The notes under the pieces were generated by a model. It was not told the origin of the DNA, did no database searches, and worked only from the letters and a program-made list of their open reading frames with translations. 64,000 nt of DNA from a virus. The DNA lies in IMG/VR virus record IMGVR_UViG_3300023179_000074, positions 1 to 64,000 of that record; one strand, written 5' to 3'. The translations under genes and the position numbers were made by a program. Positions 22,759 to 62,066 of the stretch are shown here, piece by piece (the stretch's first letter is position 1; every line of letters starts with the position of its first letter).

Positions 22759-25224
22759 TTAATTGTTATATACGATGTCGCTAGCACTTAATATCAATCT
22801 AAGACCTTTAGTCAACTCATAATTTATTAAACTATCCATTATTCCATTTGTTTTGGTCCATTCTTTAAATGAACTGTTTGTAAAGTTAATGGTGGTAAAC
22901 GGTGATTCCCAGTCAATTATATTATTAAAGTAATTATCGTTATAAACATCAACAAATTCATAAAATTTATAAAAATCACTAATTCTTGAGCCAGACAACT
23001 TTCCTGGTATAACCAAACTCCAACCCCAACTGCTATTAAACGATGAAAGAGGTATAACATCACCGTAGCTATACCCTTGTATAGTTATGCTATTAACTAA
23101 CGAGTATAGCCCTGAAAATGTCTCATACGCGACTACTGGGTAACCGGCTGTAATATATGAAGTTTTAGTAGAGAGTTCAGAACCTCTATTCTTTGCATAA
23201 TTATCATTAAATTGTGTACCTTTTTTACTAAAATCTAAATTAAATCTATTTCTATTTCCCCATAAATTAGAATGTTTTATTGATAAAATATTTACTAATC
23301 TCGTTAGTTGAGGTGGAAAGGGATAGTTGTATTGTTCGAACTGTATAGACAGTTCTTTACAAAAAGAAATTAATGCGTCAAGATTACATTTATCAATATC
23401 TGATTTATTACTCACAAAGTTTGCTATTTTTTCATATACTGTTTTACCTAATTCGTAGGGCTGTGCGGTAATACCTCCTACTATTGTACCTATAAAACTA
23501 TTAAAAAGATTAAATTTATCTTCTAAAACTTCACTGAAAATTAACGACTTATAAAACCCAGCTGCATCAAAATTTTCATTTACTTTACTAATGCTATATT
23601 GACCTGAGAGAGGTAATATATTAAAGAAATTGCTTTCACCGGTTATAGTTCTTACTAGTGTTGTAGGTATCATTCGCTTATTAATCCATCTTGTGCCTAA
23701 CCAGTCACCGTAAGCTTGAAAGCTACGCTCAGCGAATGTGCTTAAAATATTTGTAGGTGATTCACCGGGTAGAATTAAATCAACACTATTTAAATAATTT
23801 ACACTACTTACTTTAGGTGCTAAGGTATCTATAAAATATAATTTTTGATCAAAGTTATTTAAAATCCATAAGAAATCATTTGTATCACTTGCTAGTCCGC
23901 CTATACTTCCTATATAACTTGTAGAGTTAGCTGAACCTGCAATATAATTTGATGTACTACCATTTACACCATCAATTCTTGTTATAGTATCTCTATCTTG
24001 CGCAACCCATAAATTTTGAAACATATCTGTTGTTGCATTATGAATAAATTTAAATCCTGATATAGGATATCCAGAAGATAAATCCCCACGAGTATTAAAT
24101 TTATAAACATAGTCATTTCTACCTGATAGGGTATATCCAGAAGCGGCTAAATTATATGCTGTTACCCATACGTTTTTATTTCTATCAATAATAATTTCTG
24201 CGGGTGAATGAAGAGGTATAAATGGTACAACACAAAGCAACGAACCGTATGTACTATATTTTGCAATAAAACCGCAAACCGGGTGTGTATATGAAACCCA
24301 TATATCATTATTAAAATCTGAATCTATACTTACGGGGTATACAAGATTTTCTCCAGCAAACCCGCTCAAAAACGGTAAGTGGTAATCTCCACTAAGAAAA
24401 TAACATATATTTGTTACATCTGGATATGCATTTGAAAGCATGTAGCCGGATTTACCATCTATTTTAATACTTGAAACAGCATCAGCTAAGCAAAACCATA
24501 AATTATTTTCTCCATCTAAAGTAATAGATGCAGGGGCAGCGCTACTTAAAATTGGATTAAGTAGGTTTACATATTCTTTAATACCAGTGTTAGGGTTTAT
24601 ATATGGGTAAGCAGAAAGAGTGAAAGATGAGAGAAGTACACCCTCAGCGGTAAATTTAATTAATGAATCTCTCGAACCATCAGCAAACCACGCTTGATAA
24701 TCTTCTCCTATACCTGCGCCGGAGGGAGCAACTTGAATTGCATATACATTTCTATTATTATAGTTATAAACAAAATTTTTAGCGGCAGATATACTTAGAG
24801 TCACCCCACCTAAGCAGGAGCCATAAATTTGTTCTCTAAATAATCTTACTAAAACATCATACTGAGGTACTGCTGCCCATCCGATGAAGGTATCTTTAGG
24901 ATAATTAATCGGGTCCTTAACTGTCATTCTAGCAGTTAATTGCAAGTTGTAAGTAGGTTCATTAACTATAAAATAACCTTTAAAAAACGCACCGATACTT
25001 CTAGGTATTTCATCGTTAAAATCATCAAAAAATTGTACCCCGGTGACCGGATAAAAATTACTACCTTCTTTTCTTTGTAGACCAAAGTTTACATTAAAAG
25101 ATGTTAGTCCAGATAAAGAAGAATCCGTAACAGATGAATAGATTGGAGGGTAGGTTTTTGTTGTAAAATTATCCGCATCTTTCATTTTAATAAGAAAAGG
25201 AATTTCAGTATTTTGCCAACTCAA
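22759..25224 (-). CDS. Baseplate-associated beta-propeller protein, probably the C-terminal part of a gene split from 25221..26219
   Basis: Repeated D..NN(L/I/V)W(V/F) propeller blades; frame stays open upstream of the TTG to about 25266. Confidence 0.6.
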   Translation of the reverse strand: MSWQNTEIPFLIKMKDADNFTTKTYPPIYSSVTDSSLSGLTSFNVNFGLQRKEGSNFYPVTGVQFFDDFNDEIPRSIGAFFKGYFIVNEPTYNLQLTARMTVKDPINYPKDTFIGWAAVPQYDVLVRLFREQIYGSCLGGVTLSISAAKNFVYNYNNRNVYAIQVAPSGAGIGEDYQAWFADGSRDSLIKFTAEGVLLSSFTLSAYPYINPNTGIKEYVNLLNPILSSAAPASITLDGENNLWFCLADAVSSIKIDGKSGYMLSNAYPDVTNICYFLSGDYHLPFLSGFAGENLVYPVSIDSDFNNDIWVSYTHPVCGFIAKYSTYGSLLCVVPFIPLHSPAEIIIDRNKNVWVTAYNLAASGYTLSGRNDYVYKFNTRGDLSSGYPISGFKFIHNATTDMFQNLWVAQDRDTITRIDGVNGSTSNYIAGSANSTSYIGSIGGLASDTNDFLWILNNFDQKLYFIDTLAPKVSSVNYLNSVDLILPGESPTNILSTFAERSFQAYGDWLGTRWINKRMIPTTLVRTITGESNFFNILPLSGQYSISKVNENFDAAGFYKSLIFSEVLEDKFNLFNSFIGTIVGGITAQPYELGKTVYEKIANFVSNKSDIDKCNLDALISFCKELSIQFEQYNYPFPPQLTRLVNILSIKHSNLWGNRNRFNLDFSKKGTQFNDNYAKNRGSELSTKTSYITAGYPVVAYETFSGLYSLVNSITIQGYSYGDVIPLSSFNSSWGWSLVIPGKLSGSRISDFYKFYEFVDVYNDNYFNNIIDWESPFTTINFTNSSFKEWTKTNGIMDSLINYELTKGLRLILSASDIVYNN

Positions 25225-26219
25225 TTCGGGAAAATAAAATTTTGTAGTGGATAGTACTCCTTCACATCAATACCTGTAGTGGTGATATTAAGTTTTTCAG
25301 CGGGGTTGTGTCTAACTTTAATAATAGGCAGTACAGCTGGCTTAATATTATTATACCCATAAGGTGGGTAAGATATATCTCTGTATGAATCGCTGTTTAT
25401 AGTATATCTATCGGGAAATTTTGAATTATCTAAAGTTGCAAATATAAAAATAGGTGGTTCTCGTGAAGTATAGTTTTTAGTTACATCGTCAACATAAAAA
25501 AATTCGTATGAAGCGGTTGTACCTACAAAAAAACTACCAATATCATTTTTATTACAAATTCTAAAAGACTTATTATCTATTTTAGCAAAAATAGGTTCAC
25601 CGGCTTTAGTTATCCTATCAACTGATTGATACTCAAACGAGTCGCCAACAGGAGTTTTTATATAAAACCGACTTAATGCTCTTAAATGAGACCATTTATC
25701 ATCATAAAAATTATCTATATTTTGAAATTGCCCTAGAGCTCCGGATGCATAGAGATGGACAGTGTATCCCGTACTACTCAATGCATTGTAAGACTGCCAG
25801 CTTGTTTGTCTTAATAATTCTATAGGCTCAATAATCTTACTAGCTGGAACATCGTAAATAAAACGTCTAAAATCTTTAAAAACTAATTGATCTCTTATAA
25901 AATCATAAACCTTTATGGTAGGTTGATATGAACTATCGTAAGCATTACCGAATTTATCATATACTGTGAGTCTTACTTTGTAGTCACCGGGCCACTTATA
26001 ATAATGAGTTGCAGTTAGAAGACTTGAAAAAGTACCATCACCAAAATCCCATCTTAACAATTTATTAGAAATAGAGTCATCAGAAGAGAGAACTGGAGAG
26101 GTAAGAAAATCGGGAACAAAAGTTAGTGAAGTTTGTGGAAGTGTGAAGGCAGAAAGTACAGCTCTACCTGTAAAGTCATTAGCTCTAAAATATACATAAG
26201 TATAATTTACAGAAGCCAT
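25221..26219 (-). CDS. PKD-domain structural protein (N-terminal part of probable split gene)
   Basis: WDFGDGT...THYYKWPGDYKVRLTVYD PKD signature. Confidence 0.7.
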   Translation of the reverse strand: MASVNYTYVYFRANDFTGRAVLSAFTLPQTSLTFVPDFLTSPVLSSDDSISNKLLRWDFGDGTFSSLLTATHYYKWPGDYKVRLTVYDKFGNAYDSSYQPTIKVYDFIRDQLVFKDFRRFIYDVPASKIIEPIELLRQTSWQSYNALSSTGYTVHLYASGALGQFQNIDNFYDDKWSHLRALSRFYIKTPVGDSFEYQSVDRITKAGEPIFAKIDNKSFRICNKNDIGSFFVGTTASYEFFYVDDVTKNYTSREPPIFIFATLDNSKFPDRYTINSDSYRDISYPPYGYNNIKPAVLPIIKVRHNPAEKLNITTTGIDVKEYYPLQNFIFPN

Positions 26220-55438: not shown

Positions 55439-56099
55439 CTATTTTTTTAGATATTTTTTGCAACCCTAATGTAACGAGGTTTAATGCTCGTTTAGAATTT
55501 AAAAACTTTGTCTTAAAGACAAAAAAATTATTATAAAAATCTTCTCCTATAATAAATTTTAAGACTTCCGAATCTTTAGATTTTATGATAGAATCTATTC
55601 CGCTAAATCCAAATAAAATATAAACAGAAATTTTTCTATCTCTTAAATGTAAAATAAAAGAATATTCATTATTTGTCCTGTGGTTTAAATATTGATTAAT
55701 CTGTATATTATATTTTTTGCAAAAGTTATATATAAAAACGATTGACTCTTTTATAAACTTTATTTGTTCGGGGTTATCAGGGTCTGTCATAGCTAATTGC
55801 TTTTGAGTCAAGGTATAAGCTTTAGTTGCTTTTAAAGAAGTATAAAATTCGAGAGGAAAAAATGTCTCGTCTTTGTATAATCGGTAGGGAGCAGAAAAAA
55901 AATCTTCTATTTTTATATTAGGAAATCTTTTAAAAAAAGAAGATAAGCGCTTAAGAGAAACAAAAATATTTTCATCTAGCTTAGTGAAATCTTTTCTTAA
56001 TTTAAAAGGTGTATTTTTTGCGCTTCTAGTTACTTTTAAAAACGAATTATAAATGTGTTTGTCAAATTCAGTTATCACTACTTTTAATAAAACTTCCAT
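55428..56099 (-). CDS. Hypothetical replication protein (position like gp59 helicase loader)
   Basis: Directly upstream of gp32; true start likely GTG 56078. Confidence 0.5.
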   Translation of the reverse strand: MEVLLKVVITEFDKHIYNSFLKVTRSAKNTPFKLRKDFTKLDENIFVSLKRLSSFFKRFPNIKIEDFFSAPYRLYKDETFFPLEFYTSLKATKAYTLTQKQLAMTDPDNPEQIKFIKESIVFIYNFCKKYNIQINQYLNHRTNNEYSFILHLRDRKISVYILFGFSGIDSIIKSKDSEVLKFIIGEDFYNNFFVFKTKFLNSKRALNLVTLGLQKISKKIVER

Positions 56100-56296
56100 T
56101 TATTTCTAGTTACTTCTTTTTTAAATTTTTTAAACGCGCTAGGCTTTAAATACCGTCTCTTAAGTCTAACTTCATCTAAAATACCAGATTTAAGAACTTC
56201 AGAGCTAAATTTTCTGTAAGCCTTATCAAAATAAGTCTTATCAGTACTTTTCTTTTTGTCAAGATTAACCACGACATTAGTTGTATAATTTCTCAA
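56084..56296 (-). CDS. rpsU: Ribosomal protein bS21 homologue
   Basis: 70 aa basic; FDKAYRKF...KSGIL.EVR..R.Y.KPS matches the bS21 consensus. Confidence 0.85.
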   Translation of the reverse strand: MRNYTTNVVVNLDKKKSTDKTYFDKAYRKFSSEVLKSGILDEVRLKRRYLKPSAFKKFKKEVTRNKWKFY

Positions 56297-56631: not shown

Positions 56632-57954
56632 CTAGATTGATAGCTTAGTTAGAGTATTTACTGTGCTAGCGCTTCCCTCTGTATCGTTAGTATGCTCATC
56701 TTCGTAAATTGTTAATGTAGAGTAATCTATTCTCATAGAACAATATCCATAATTAGGACCAAATCTATTCTTCATCATCCCCATCTTAATAACTCCAAGT
56801 TCTTTATCTGTATCTTCTTGCCATATGCTTAAAATAACGTCACCTGTCATAGCAAGTCCCATACTTTCAGAAATAGTCTTAAGACCTGGATCAGTGATGT
56901 CGTAGCCTTCTCTATTTAATTGCGTAGCAGATATAACCGGGCAATTAAAAAAATAAGAAAGAGCTCGTAATTGTTCTGTACAGTTTTTAATTCTTTCGTA
57001 ACTCGTGTCACCGATAGAGGAATAAAGAAGATTTACATAATCTAATACGATTGCATCGATTTTAATACCTTTCTGAGTAAGTTTTTTAATAAACGCCTTA
57101 AGATTATTAACACTTATAGAAGCGGGAGGAAACTCTTTAATAATAATTTTAGAATTTGGATTTTCGACGCAATATTCAGTAATCTGAGTCTTAAGAGTGT
57201 CCGATTCAATCTTTAATTGAGAAAGTGGAATCTTAGATACAGTAGAGCAAAGTCTTTTTGCATAGACTATCTCAGGCATTTCTAATGTTACTAGCAAAAC
57301 TGTTTTACCTTGATCTGCAATATTAATAGCGACGTTTCCTAGGAAAATACTTTTTCCAATGTTGGTTTCACCGGCAAACAAATAAAGCGCTCTACCACTT
57401 TCCATAAAGCCGCCACCTATTTTATCATCCAACCACTTCCACTTCGAAGAAATATATTTCTCAGTAGAGTTTAAATCTGAAATAACTTTATCTACATCGG
57501 TGTACAAATCTAATCCAGTATTCGTTACTAACGATATACCGCAAGCTTTTTCAAATTTATCAAGAATTTTTGCTGTATCTAGCGTCTCTTTATTTAAATC
57601 CTCCACCACATCCATCATAGTATGATATACGGCTTTTTCTTTTAAAAAGATTTCCGTGTTTGTTTGAAGTTCGTCGTTATTTAAGTTTTTATCAATGCCA
57701 TTAAACATATTAACAACAGTCTTTAAAGAATTTTTTAATTCATCTGTAGTTAAATATGTTTTAATTTCAGTTATTGTTGGTTTTGTCCCTCTTTTTTCGT
57801 AAAAATCTCTTATAATAGCAAAAAGACTTTTTATATCTTTGTTTTTGAAGTAAACTGGCTTTATATAGTCAACGATAGAACCGAGATAAGTATCATCAGT
57901 AAGGCTTTTATATGCAATTATAATTTCAAAATAATCTAAATCTAACTTCTGCAT
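56632..57954 (-). CDS. gp41: Replicative DnaB-like helicase (gp41)
   Basis: GETNIGKS, VTLEM, IKEFP, LDYVNL, SATQLNR, SESMGL, KNRFG. Confidence 0.95.
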   Translation of the reverse strand: MQKLDLDYFEIIIAYKSLTDDTYLGSIVDYIKPVYFKNKDIKSLFAIIRDFYEKRGTKPTITEIKTYLTTDELKNSLKTVVNMFNGIDKNLNNDELQTNTEIFLKEKAVYHTMMDVVEDLNKETLDTAKILDKFEKACGISLVTNTGLDLYTDVDKVISDLNSTEKYISSKWKWLDDKIGGGFMESGRALYLFAGETNIGKSIFLGNVAINIADQGKTVLLVTLEMPEIVYAKRLCSTVSKIPLSQLKIESDTLKTQITEYCVENPNSKIIIKEFPPASISVNNLKAFIKKLTQKGIKIDAIVLDYVNLLYSSIGDTSYERIKNCTEQLRALSYFFNCPVISATQLNREGYDITDPGLKTISESMGLAMTGDVILSIWQEDTDKELGVIKMGMMKNRFGPNYGYCSMRIDYSTLTIYEDEHTNDTEGSASTVNTLTKLSI

Positions 57955-57966
57955 TTTGTAATTATA

Positions 57967-58632
57967 CTATAAGTTAGAGTAATTTCTAATAAATTTTTCT
58001 TGGCTTTGTAAAAAAGTCTTGTCATTTAAATTTAAGAGACCTGGTGATTTATGAATTACATGTATAGGATACACTCCAAGCTTTAACTTTTTAAAATTAG
58101 CATCAATAGAGCTAGCAATATCATAATGATGAAAAGTGTAGTCCTCGTTGAACTCCCAACCGCTATTAACAATAGCTTTTGTTGAAACGCTTAAAAATAA
58201 TCCGTCTAAAATAGTTACACGGCTAGGCGTAAGCCCAAAATTTGTAACAAAATATTGTTCGGTGTTTGCATAGTGTGCAACAAACCCCCTTAAGTTAGGA
58301 CCGAACCCACCGCACATTAAATGCCATAATGCTGGTTCTTTAACAACAGGGTTAATACCACCTGCAAGACCAACAATATCATATAACCTATGGGCGGTAA
58401 CTAACTTTTCACAAATATTATAATCATCTACAAATACATCATCATGTAAAAAAATAATATAATCAAAATTATTAGAATTTTTATTTAAAAATTCATTGTA
58501 TTTTTTACTAAGACCCTCTTTATTATTGCAAGAATAAAAAATTTTACCCGGGCTTATCTTACTTAAAGATTTAAATGCAAGAGTATTGTCTGGCTTATTT
58601 TCTTTAGTACAAAAGTAAAAAGCAAATTTCAT
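57967..58632 (-). CDS. GT-A glycosyltransferase (Glyco_tranf_2_5-like)
   Basis: YN..L, IIFLHDDV, IVGLAG, LDGLF, FHHYD, VIH.S.G. Confidence 0.8.
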   Translation of the reverse strand: MKFAFYFCTKENKPDNTLAFKSLSKISPGKIFYSCNNKEGLSKKYNEFLNKNSNNFDYIIFLHDDVFVDDYNICEKLVTAHRLYDIVGLAGGINPVVKEPALWHLMCGGFGPNLRGFVAHYANTEQYFVTNFGLTPSRVTILDGLFLSVSTKAIVNSGWEFNEDYTFHHYDIASSIDANFKKLKLGVYPIHVIHKSPGLLNLNDKTFLQSQEKFIRNYSNL

Positions 58633-59309
58633 TAAAAAAACGGTGAGTTGGTTTTAAACTTACCTACAGATGTAATGCCTTCAGGCGTTAAGTAATACAG
58701 AAGTCCTTCCTCTAAAGGAACAAAATCCTGTTCTTTTAGTGAAGAAAATTCATTGTTTAGGAAATCTGCATAAATTGTACTTCCACTTCTTGCAATATAT
58801 ACATGTGCATTTTTTTGATTATAAATCCATAGCCCAAATGTACCTTCAAGTAAAGATAGCGCTTTACATATACCGAGTATTTCATCACCGTGTTCTTTAA
58901 CGGAATTAAAAATTAGTGGTGGTATCACAGATGAATCTACAGTATTAAATGACTTTTTATCTGTTATTGTTTTCTTTAAAATTTTATCATTTGTAAGTAC
59001 CCCGTTGTGTGCTATAATCCAATTTTTATATTGAAATGGATGTGTTGTGTTAGGGGAAAACTCTCTTTTTGATGACGTTGGGGCTTGTGTATGGCCTAAA
59101 AAATAATTAAAATCTGTAATACTTTTTTTACTTTTTCCATATTCTATAATAAGTTTTTTGGAGAGCTTTACTACATTTGGGCTTTTTAAAATAGCATGTA
59201 CTTTGGTGTTAATTAGTAATCCCCCGTAAGAAAACGTACCTCTTTTCTTATTACTATCATAAAGCTTTACGTATCTTGTAAAGTCTTTAGCGCCAAATAT
59301 TCCGCAAAT
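58632..59309 (-). CDS. Class II (Ntn) glutamine amidotransferase, ATT start, ~225 aa
   Basis: Hand translation upstream of the 98-aa ORF gives (M)CGIFG...N.KRG.FSYG...LGHTQAPT...HPF...AHNGVLTN...VDSSVI with no stop; AAGGAGG 8 nt before ATT. Confidence 0.9.
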   Translation of the reverse strand: MCGIFGAKDFTRYVKLYDSNKKRGTFSYGGLLINTKVHAILKSPNVVKLSKKLIIEYGKSKKSITDFNYFLGHTQAPTSSKREFSPNTTHPFQYKNWIIAHNGVLTNDKILKKTITDKKSFNTVDSSVIPPLIFNSVKEHGDEILGICKALSLLEGTFGLWIYNQKNAHVYIARSGSTIYADFLNNEFSSLKEQDFVPLEEGLLYYLTPEGITSVGKFKTNSPFF

Positions 59310-59357
59310 ATTATAAACCTCCTTAATTATTATATTACAAAGAATAAATAATTCAAG
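59310..59357. promoter_or_regulatory. Overlapping divergent promoters plus Shine-Dalgarno
   Basis: Minus strand: TTGAAT(59356-51)-N16-TATAAT(59334-29) and AAGGAGG (59324-18). Plus strand: TAAATA 59345-50, inside that spacer. Confidence 0.75.
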
Positions 59358-60242
59358 ATGAATAAGGATACAAAGCTTATATTCGAGGCTTATTTAAATA
59401 AAAAAATTGTCACGGAAGCTCCTATCTATGCTGATGATTTAGGGTTAACAGGAGATATTGAGAAGTCCCCAGGTAAGGGCTATGGAATTGGCAAAGTAGC
59501 TGCTAAAACAGGCAAGTCGATGACAGAAGTCGCTAATAATTTATTAAAAGTAATACAAACTAAACTTTTTAAGCCTGAACCGCATACTGTAGATGGAAAA
59601 GAGTATTCTTTATATTACCCTGGGTCAAAATTAAAGTTTAGAGCAGAATTAGAAAATTTAATTAAGAATGAGCTTAAATTAGGTACTACAGAGGCAAGAT
59701 ATACGGCTAGAGTTGTTGATAATTTATTGAACGTAACGCGTGTAGATGCAGATGGCGGTACAGCCGCGACACCCGTTGATGTTAAAAAAGCTGTGGTTGC
59801 GGGGGTACAAGGTAAAGCTATTACTCCGGGTTCAGAAGCCCCGGTAGCAGCGCCCGCTAATAATGTATTTGTAAAAAATCCTAACGTTAGGTTTATTAAG
59901 GAATGGATGCCTATTTTTGTTGAGCTTCCTGATGAAATAACGTATACGGGTTCTGATTTTTACGATTCTAAAGAATTGCGTAATGAGGTTGTAGAAGCTA
60001 TAACTCGTGCATTTGATGAGAATGCGGCTAAAGACAAAGAAATGATTCAGGATTTTATTGATTCATTGAAATTTAAAAATAGCTACACACCGGCTAGTGA
60101 GAAAAAAGAAGGTGAAGGTACTGGTGAAGAACCTACGATTGAAGAATACCCAGAAGAAGATGAGCCTACATCAATAGCTCGTGAATTAGGATATAAGGGG
60201 GGAAGAAGTTTTGACGAATTTGATAAATACAGTACTATTTAA
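59358..60242 (+). CDS. Hypothetical late protein (possible internal head protein)
   Basis: TAAATA-N7-ATG; N-terminus MNKDTKLIFEAY; acidic C-terminus. Confidence 0.65.
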   Translation: MNKDTKLIFEAYLNKKIVTEAPIYADDLGLTGDIEKSPGKGYGIGKVAAKTGKSMTEVANNLLKVIQTKLFKPEPHTVDGKEYSLYYPGSKLKFRAELENLIKNELKLGTTEARYTARVVDNLLNVTRVDADGGTAATPVDVKKAVVAGVQGKAITPGSEAPVAAPANNVFVKNPNVRFIKEWMPIFVELPDEITYTGSDFYDSKELRNEVVEAITRAFDENAAKDKEMIQDFIDSLKFKNSYTPASEKKEGEGTGEEPTIEEYPEEDEPTSIARELGYKGGRSFDEFDKYSTI

Positions 60243-60979
60243 TTAATTAGTTTGCAGTTGTATTTTTCCCAAGGTATTGCAATTCTATAAGGCAATGGGT
60301 CTATAAAACCGGCATCTATGAAGCCTTTTATCCTCAAAGAGCATGCAGTACATTCACCACAAGCGATTTCTTCTCCCTCATAACAAGTCCAGGTCTGGCT
60401 AAAATTAACCCCGAGCTTTACCCCGAGTTTAATGATTTCCGCTTTAGATTTATCAATTAACGGTGCTTGAACTGTAATTCTGTTTCTTCTGTTAAGCGAT
60501 GACACTTTATTAATTTGCTCTAAAAATTCATCACTTCCATCCCAAAAGCCTGCAACGCTATCAGCTTGCGCGGCTCCATGAAAAACAGTGCTAGCTCCGT
60601 AGTTTTCTGCTATTGCGAGGGAAATACTAAGCAGCATTAGGTTCCTATATGGAACGTAGTTAACCGTCTGCGGATCACCCATCACATCTTTAGCCTTAGC
60701 AACTGCAACCTTGTTATTAAGGAGTGAAGAAACCTGACAAATATCTCTAAAAAAAGGTAATTTTAAGTGTAAACTATCAACCGGCATATCAAGCGATTCA
60801 ATTTGAAATGAAGCGCAATTTATTTCTTTATCACGATGCTTCTGCCCGTAATCATAATTAACTGAAATTATTTTATCATACCTACTTGCAGCTAAGTGTA
60901 ACAGTACAGAGCTATCCATTCCCCCAGAGATGGGGACTACTACTTTACTCGACGGGCTCTTCTTCAGTTTGCGCTTCAT
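60239..60979 (-). CDS. queC: QueC-family (7-cyano-7-deazaguanine synthase-like) ATP-dependent enzyme
   Basis: SGGMDS PP-loop, YDYGQKH, VPYRN, APL...K..I..LG, TWTCY...CGEC.AC.LR; the usual YPDC is replaced by FWDG. Confidence 0.85.
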   Translation of the reverse strand: MKRKLKKSPSSKVVVPISGGMDSSVLLHLAASRYDKIISVNYDYGQKHRDKEINCASFQIESLDMPVDSLHLKLPFFRDICQVSSLLNNKVAVAKAKDVMGDPQTVNYVPYRNLMLLSISLAIAENYGASTVFHGAAQADSVAGFWDGSDEFLEQINKVSSLNRRNRITVQAPLIDKSKAEIIKLGVKLGVNFSQTWTCYEGEEIACGECTACSLRIKGFIDAGFIDPLPYRIAIPWEKYNCKLIN

Positions 60980-62066
60980 TTGCGTTATATTTGTATTCCT
61001 CTGCTAAGCGCTTGTCGAGTTCCGGAATAATAAATTCCTCGTAAAAAGCGGGGTCTTTTGCAAAGGTCTTTGCATAACCCAGTTTATCACCTTTCTTATA
61101 CTTACCACTAGTAACACCAACAGTATAGGTAGCTCCGTTTTGCTCAATAATACCTCTTGCAGCTGCCATACCAAGAAGACCACTATACTTGTTAAGACCG
61201 GTTTTAAAGGAAAGATACATTTCAGTCTCTAAAAACGGTGGGAGAAAGCGGTTCTTTACAGTCAATGCGCGAAGAGTTGTACCGCTATACTTATTTGCTT
61301 CAGCGAGCTTTTTATCCTCAACATCCATAGAATCGCCTTCGCCTTCCTTTTCATGGCGCTTAGCAAGCTGTACAAGAATACTCGCCATATATACAGGTCC
61401 AGAGCCTCCAGCTTGGTTTTTTACTAGACTCGGGAACATTGCAGCCGGGTCATCATAGGTGTGGTTAGTAAAAAGAATTGTTACTCCTGCTTTAGCAGCT
61501 TTAAACGTGAGAGTACGAAACATACTCTTTAAAGATTTAGCACGTAAACCCATATCTGCGGCAGATTTATCCTTAGCAACGTCATCAAGCTCTTTTTGCG
61601 AGGCAAGATTACCCAAACTATCAATACTTAAAATAAATTTACCTTTAGCGTTATTTTCAATAATACTATCTAATAAAGCACTAATTTGATTGCGACACTG
61701 ATCTATAGTATCAACTGGTACATATTTTACTGTTTCCGGGTCCAACCCAACGCCTTTAGTGCTATTTTCATCAATGGCAATTTCAGTATCAAATATAACA
61801 GGTGTAAGTCCCTTCTTCTGAGCTGTAGCTAAAATTTTATTAACTATAAATGTTTTACCGGTCTGACTAGGTCCAGAAAAACCTATTATTCTCCCTTTAG
61901 GAACGCCACCATTGCGGCAACTCCCACCGAGTATAGCGTTAAGAGCGTAGCATCCAGTATCAAACCACTCATCAACTTTACTAAGTGCATTTTCTTTTAA
62001 AAAAGTAGCTTCAGAATTTAATTTATCTAAAGACGCAAATATCTTATTAAGATCTTTATTACTCAT
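60945..62066 (-). CDS. uvsX: RecA-like recombinase (UvsX)
   Basis: GPSQTGKT, FDTE, IDSLG, ADMG.RAK, TNHTY, GG.G..Y, VKNRF. Confidence 0.93.
   Translation of the reverse strand: MSNKDLNKIFASLDKLNSEATFLKENALSKVDEWFDTGCYALNAILGGSCRNGGVPKGRIIGFSGPSQTGKTFIVNKILATAQKKGLTPVIFDTEIAIDENSTKGVGLDPETVKYVPVDTIDQCRNQISALLDSIIENNAKGKFILSIDSLGNLASQKELDDVAKDKSAADMGLRAKSLKSMFRTLTFKAAKAGVTILFTNHTYDDPAAMFPSLVKNQAGGSGPVYMASILVQLAKRHEKEGEGDSMDVEDKKLAEANKYSGTTLRALTVKNRFLPPFLETEMYLSFKTGLNKYSGLLGMAAARGIIEQNGATYTVGVTSGKYKKGDKLGYAKTFAKDPAFYEEFIIPELDKRLAEEYKYNANEAQTEEEPVE

Follow-up and report, generated by a model that had tools for sequence, protein, structure and literature searches.

Organization of the amidotransferase locus

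The stretch of DNA analysed here (the window) comprises 64,000 nt of the 78-kb IMG/VR virus record IMGVR_UViG_3300023179_000074, a record estimated to be 36% complete. The window has a G+C content of about 30%, and its UvsX is about 33% identical to the UvsX proteins of T4-like cyanophages and of Methylophilales phage Melnitz; the source is an uncultured freshwater T4-like phage. A megablast search with positions 57000-61000 against deposited phage genomes returned no match. We focused on a glutamine amidotransferase gene (GATase) and its surroundings, which contain the following features.

57967..58632, minus strand: GT2-like glycosyltransferase (GT), 221 aa (Pfam Glyco_tranf_2_5, E 3.9e-9); its start overlaps the GATase stop (TAATG)
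58632..59309, minus strand: class II (Ntn) glutamine amidotransferase domain protein, 225 codons, assigned from Pfam, a PDB profile and AlphaFold/Foldseek
59304..59306, minus strand: TGC, the catalytic N-terminal Cys, followed by GGA ATA TTT GGC
59307..59309, minus strand: ATT initiation codon (AUU), 8 nt after GGAGG
59317..59324, minus strand: Shine-Dalgarno (SD) sequence AAGGAGGT, the strongest of the 78-kb record, with its GGAGG core at 59318-59322
59329..59334, minus strand: -10 hexamer TATAAT, 6 nt before GGAGG
59351..59356, minus strand: -35-like hexamer TTGAAT of a putative sigma-70-type early promoter, 16 nt from TATAAT
59358..60242, plus strand: divergent ORF, 294 aa, without a family assignment; it carries a TAAATA late-type motif and has the 48-bp intergenic region in common with GATase
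60239..60979, minus strand: QueC-family PP-loop enzyme (Pfam QueC, E 7.9e-55)

The GATase reading frame is open on the minus strand from ATT to the TAA at 58634-58632, a length of 225 codons. The program-made ORF list gave only a 98-aa ORF from the GTG at 58928, which the original prediction had extended 127 codons upstream to an ATT start with no ATG, GTG or TTG in frame as far as the upstream stop. Both points were borne out: ATT lies 127 codons before this GTG, and because the ORF list starts at the GTG, no in-frame ATG, GTG or TTG occurs between it and the upstream stop.

Upstream of the start, TTGAAT-16-TATAAT matches the promoter consensus at 10 of 12 positions. A single match of this kind is not significant in AT-rich DNA, and the weight of the assignment comes from conservation and fixed geometry. 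The TTGAAT hexamer also occurred at related loci with printed upstream sequence, whether of the ATG or the ATT type, and the arrangement TATAAT-N6-GGAGG was found in 15 distinct related leaders, with N5 in 5 more. Across the genome, TATAAT-N6-ATG was present at 6 of 77 gene starts (0.07 expected), often with a TTGAnn -35 element, and TAAATA stood 5-6 nt before ATG at 15 of 77 gene starts (0.39 expected), a T4-late-like signal. The GATase transcript is predicted to begin with the first G of GGAGG, at about 59322, since the same -10 element stands 6 nt before ATG in the TATAAT-N6-ATG genes of this genome; by this analogy, the mRNA would start with its own SD. The SD AAGGAGGT was predicted to be unpaired, the leader fold was not more stable than that of shuffled sequences (z = -0.94), and an Rfam search (E up to 1) of positions 57800-60400 returned nothing. 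An out-of-frame TTG lies 2 nt into the gene (ATTTGC) and opens a 6-codon ORF (59307-59287, minus strand) that could compete for SD-bound ribosomes; it does not discriminate between the two start types, because ATG-type genes carry an equivalent GTG with similar ORF lengths.

The SD pairing energy at the 82 gene starts of the 78-kb record, calculated with a generic anti-SD, had a median of 0.1 kcal/mol. With the same generic anti-SD, which may not be that of the host, the GATase start reached -12.8 kcal/mol and the next two starts -8.7 and -8.6 kcal/mol. The claim that GATase carries the only strong SD was nearly right: its SD is the best of 82 (-12.8 vs -8.7 kcal/mol), and a second SD-bearing gene (25221-26219) has AAGGAG-N5-ATG. 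This gene comes after a baseplate wedge gene and had no PHROG match. The genome is essentially leaderless, and SD sequences are almost absent throughout the 78-kb record.

ATT is the conserved and only possible start codon of GATase

The ATT was identical in contigs assembled from the sequencing runs of three different studies, with no differences over positions 58400-59800, and is therefore not an assembly error. No RNA run was found to contain the stretch, and the one metatranscriptome compared with it yielded nothing. We then compared related viral loci. The 33 closest of 80 loci (65-92% protein identity) all carried ATT-TGY with GGAGG 8-10 nt upstream. Wherever Ile precedes the Cys, the codon was ATT (37 of 37 distinct CDS, each with GGAGG 8-10 nt upstream) and never ATC or ATA, whereas internal Ile codons of the same family were divided 52/37/11% among ATT, ATA and ATC, and codons 2-4 varied synonymously. 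In many relatives, an in-frame stop precedes ATT by 2-7 codons and no canonical start intervenes; in two of them (L010 and L014) the distance is just 2 codons. ATT is accordingly the sole possible start in these genes, which excludes a propeptide made from a start further upstream there. The view that ATT is the obligate initiator before Cys was upheld, as the codon is conserved, coupled to an SD and has no alternative.

The 33 codons that gene callers drop (codons 2-34) gave pS 0.60, pN 0.10 and pN/pS 0.17, and are thus under purifying selection. Among the best 120 database homologues (P0003-P0122), 50 were N-truncated and missed the first 12-66 residues together with the catalytic Cys, because gene callers refuse ATT starts; one database homologue, when extended upstream, read Ile before Cys. 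A systematic annotation error is thereby exposed, and predictions of function or structure made from these 50 of 120 entries will be wrong. No report of an ATT-start phage amidotransferase was found in the part of the literature covered, and the pelagimyophage paper (PMC7029224) mentioned neither an amidotransferase nor QueC.

GATase is predicted to be a stand-alone class II amidotransferase

The protein matched Pfam PF13522 (GATase_6) with 33.7 bits against a cut-off of 27. A family profile searched against the PDB matched the glutaminase domain of GlmS (1xff, E 1.4e-10), with HNG aligned on HNG and VDSS on TDTE. The AlphaFold model (pLDDT 92.3, pTM 0.91) was closest in Foldseek to 1xff (E 3.8e-11, TM 0.73), followed by PurF, GFAT-1 and EgtC, and the match of the predicted model to the GlmS and PurF domains indicates the four-layer Ntn fold. 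Residues H101, N102, G103 and D125 were invariant in 28 sequences, so that the oxyanion-hole Asn-Gly and the Asp for the substrate amino group are present. Wherever the start region of a relative was recovered, a Cys stood directly after the initiator (CGIFG, CAIFG or CSIFG). On the strength of the Pfam match, the 1xff profile match and the modelled fold, GATase is predicted to be a functional stand-alone class II (Ntn) amidotransferase domain, and Cys must therefore become residue 1 of the mature protein after Met removal.

The phage GATase shares the Ntn fold, the N-terminal Cys and the HNG and Asp residues with the glutaminase domains of GlmS and PurF and with EgtC-like enzymes, but differs from GlmS and PurF in that it has only 225 aa and lacks a fused synthase domain. 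No longer, fused homologues were found, which is weak evidence for a stand-alone protein. The invariant segment GHTQAPT (residues 72-78) contains a Gln, with the invariant R82 nearby; the HMM alignment to 1xff stops short of this segment. We take the corresponding segment of GlmS to be HTRWAT, with the glutamine-binding Arg73 at the position of this Gln, and GATase may thus act on a substrate other than free glutamine. In a tblastn search with the GATase protein against phages, the sole match was a distant Ntn hydrolase of a Vibrio phage. All members of the family came from viral contigs in searches that included the GTDB representative genomes; no close homologue was found in the latter, which consequently gave no clue to the host.

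The start codon and the SD sequence change together

Among 68 distinct rows of the family comparison, 38 had ATT and 30 had ATG. All 38 ATT rows carried an SD. The ATG rows comprised 27 without an SD, 1 with a 4-mer and 2 (L073 and L078) whose SD-like run lies some 11-15 nt before ATG, too distant to serve it well. A well-spaced SD with ATG was never seen among the family rows. Relatives at 50-63% identity mostly had ATG without an SD and with TATAAT 6-9 nt before it, a leaderless-like layout. In 646 kb of related phage DNA, GGAGG ahead of a start codon that opens 80 or more codons was found with ATT 42 times, against 3 times with ATG in other genes, and this layout is almost exclusive to the GATase gene.

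On the tree, ATT and ATG must have interchanged at least 5-6 times, and the window falls inside an all-ATT clade of 29 rows (support 97/91). The L066 start resembles an L064-like promoter with a local insertion of about 12 nt that created GGAGG, together with a change from ATG to ATT, and the leaders of L080 and L081 are different again. Judged by their leaders, independent SD plus ATT architectures would number about 3-4 rather than 6, because some of the switches reflect horizontal transfer of one leader cassette. These comparisons point to compensated co-evolution of the start codon and the SD.

A leader cassette is associated with an endonuclease-like gene in some relatives

In six relatives (L062, L069, L071, L072, L074 and L077), a 244-aa ORF lies directly upstream of the ATT.

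L062:3223-3957 and L071:2469-3203, minus strand: 244-aa GIY-YIG/NUMOD1-like ORF, between the divergent late ORF and GATase

The ORF matched GIY-YIG (E 3.7e-4), SegE_GIY-YIG and NUMOD1, all below the Pfam gathering cut-offs. The 60 nt before ATT were 90-97% identical among L071, L062 and L044, whose coding regions belong to three protein clades, while the protein sisters of these three had unrelated ATG-type upstream regions. A breakpoint at the start codon is indicated, because the leaders match across clades whereas the upstream regions of the protein sisters differ. L044 has kept the cassette leader and has no ORF of at least 60 aa within about 190 bp before its ATT. In this one sub-family, the leader and ATT thus move horizontally with the endonuclease-like gene, which means that not every ATT arose by selection on translation. 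T4 has free-standing GIY-YIG homing endonucleases (the Seg proteins), and the relatives recall that system in having a GIY-YIG/NUMOD1-like gene beside the start and a leader plus ATT common to divergent phages. They differ from it in that the domain scores are sub-threshold, and the endonuclease is absent from the window and its whole clade.

Interpretation of the SD plus AUU start

We consider it very probable that GATase is translated from AUU, that its weak codon and its strong SD are adapted to each other on an mRNA with a 5'-terminal SD, and that GT is coupled to it. The putative sigma-70-type early promoter would probably start the mRNA at or next to GGAGG, giving a message whose 13-nt leader, made up of the 5'-terminal SD and 8 nt of spacer, runs into AUU-UGC. 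With the 30S subunit recruited by the strong SD, the initiator tRNA would read AUU as fMet. Deformylase and Met aminopeptidase would then expose the Cys1 nucleophile, and GT would be translated by ribosomes terminating at TAATG. Since relatives have either an SD with ATT or an SD-less, leaderless-like ATG, the comparison suggests that either design keeps output close to a set level, which is probably modest. Read in this way, the locus illustrates in nature how a start codon and its ribosome-binding site can co-evolve, the layout of one orthologous gene having changed several times.

Several other explanations were weighed against translation from a co-adapted AUU. That the ATT allele is decaying or untranslated, or that an upstream start is used and a propeptide removed to expose Cys, is very improbable. 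Some Ntn amidotransferases are made with propeptides, and gene callers did miss the full frame in the 50 truncated homologues; but the low pN/pS over the uncalled codons, the 48 invariant columns (HNG and the Asp included) and the high-confidence structure model argue against decay, and the stops shortly upstream of ATT in many relatives, together with an upstream sequence that is not conserved as protein, argue against a propeptide. It is also unlikely that SD plus ATT is the footprint or immunity allele of a homing endonuclease, spread or selected through a GIY-YIG insertion at the start of the gene. The adjoining ORF in the six relatives, the near-identical leader across three protein clades and its presence in L044, which has no such ORF next to it, count in favour of this history; the window clade, however, has no endonuclease gene in any of its 29 distinct rows, retains the ancestral TTGAAT-16-TATAAT in an intergenic region of about 48 bp and has only GGAGG in common with the cassette, so that this idea is unsupported at the present locus. 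The local change seen in L066 also speaks against it, as does the fact that the predicted nuclease scores below the gathering cut-off and has no known cleavage site.

A further explanation is a dedicated translational switch, in which SD plus AUU makes GATase-GT respond to the state of the initiation machinery, such as the IF3 level or ribosomes carrying bS21, and so times or gates its expression in the course of infection. The window does encode a ribosomal protein of this kind about 3 kb downstream of GATase, between gp41 and gp32.

56084..56296, minus strand: phage-encoded ribosomal protein bS21 (PF01165, 34.6 bits against a cut-off of 27, at 56114-56230; phrog_21469, E 2e-5)

Messages that start at AUU are weaker than those that start at AUG and lose out in competition with them, and a conserved non-AUG start may serve regulation, infC being an example (PMC5499595). 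IF3 discriminates against AUU (PMC5499595, PMC9031893), and leaderless mRNAs are inhibited by high IF3 (PMC9031893). The SD plus AUU layout and the leaderless layout would thus both be IF3-sensitive and an SD plus ATG layout would not, which we propose as an attractive reason for the avoidance of SD plus ATG and the strict retention of ATT. In its fullest form, this proposal holds that SD plus AUU is the only leadered design that stays IF3-sensitive in a phage of leaderless AUG genes, and that GATase-GT is gated by a phage-imposed initiation state, perhaps aided by bS21; if so, the absence of a well-spaced SD with ATG would be the signature of that constraint, and GATase-GT possibly a DNA or nucleotide modification step. 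We regard both the switch and this fuller form as unlikely. No IF3 domain (PF00707, IF3_C) was found in five phage records, the best of which is estimated to be 88% complete, and the leader has neither a predicted structure nor an Rfam element. Among relatives, bS21 was present or absent independently of the ATT or ATG type: it occurred with ATG-type genes in G003 and G006 and, at the locus itself, in L035-L038, and the 36%-complete record of the ATT-type L044 yielded no bS21. The original prediction of deliberate translational control is only partly supported: ATT is conserved and coupled to a strong SD, and the pattern fits a compensated pair but gives no support for an IF3 or bS21 switch. 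An association between bS21 and ATT, considered separately, was unsupported on the same distribution, and bS21 itself had no tblastn match in phages.

As in E. coli infC and pcnB, AUU is the sole start of the phage GATase, is conserved in orthologues and is served by an SD, and low or IF3-sensitive output would be expected (PMC5499595). Unlike infC and pcnB, the phage gene is viral, its SD is predicted to lie at the mRNA 5' end, the genome otherwise uses leaderless AUG, and its orthologues alternate between SD plus AUU and leaderless-like AUG. A feedback link to IF3 of the infC type was not found, PF00707 being absent from the five records, and an autoregulatory loop is not expected because the product is an amidotransferase and not an initiation factor. 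Leaderless mRNAs are familiar from lambda cI and many actinobacterial genes. The ATG-type relatives and most genes of this phage resemble them in lacking an SD and in having a -10-like element 5-9 nt upstream of ATG, whereas GATase of the window differs in its short leader with an SD and its non-AUG start.

Probable coupling to GT and genomic context

The overlap between GATase and GT was kept in related loci: among 59 distinct relatives, ATGA was found in 52 and TAATG in 3. The GT start has neither an SD nor a promoter motif of its own, and GT is probably translationally coupled to GATase, as judged from this arrangement. The gene order UvsX-QueC-(variable cargo, divergent late ORF)-GATase-GT-gp41-...-gp32 was kept wherever a locus reached far enough, and homologues of the divergent ORF occupied the same place in most relatives. 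GATase lies in the conserved replication core, beside QueC and probably coupled to GT, and its correct N-terminus matters for a possible new nucleotide or DNA modification pathway.

By position, QueC and GT are candidate acceptor partners of GATase, which possibly supplies ammonia to the neighbouring QueC-type enzyme in a 7-deazaguanine pathway. In four larger relatives (G001-G004, the records of L013, L032, L073 and L052), FolE and QueD are encoded at a distance of about 20 kb from QueC-GATase-GT. TGT/DpdA (PF01702) was absent from five phage records, the best of them estimated to be 88% complete, although a divergent DpdA could escape the model. The gene content of G001-G004 points to a deazaguanine pathway that lacks any recognisable DNA transglycosylase.

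In phage 9g, dG+ is the product of a Gat-QueC fusion (PMC6884629), and the phage 9g and archaeal systems, which lead to dG+ or archaeosine, likewise combine a class II amidotransferase with a QueC-type enzyme (PMC6884629). Here, by contrast, amidotransferase and QueC are encoded separately, a further ORF intervenes, and a glycosyltransferase is coupled to the amidotransferase. QueC matched a PHROG family of fused proteins, and the GATase protein (P0002) had no match to it. A split version of Gat-QueC is possible at this locus, but assignment to a split Gat-QueC dG+ pathway failed on the lack of a fusion, the lack of longer homologues and the absence of PF01702 from the five records.

The site between QueC and the divergent late ORF is a hypervariable cargo island in the relatives (L018:2030-2644, L053:1983-2969, L008:825-1556, L014:2503-3042 and L012:1872-3041). 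The window has no cargo at this site; the genes found there in relatives include UDP-galactopyranose mutase, FN3, C1q-like, glycine-rich and BNR-like genes and extra glycosyltransferases.
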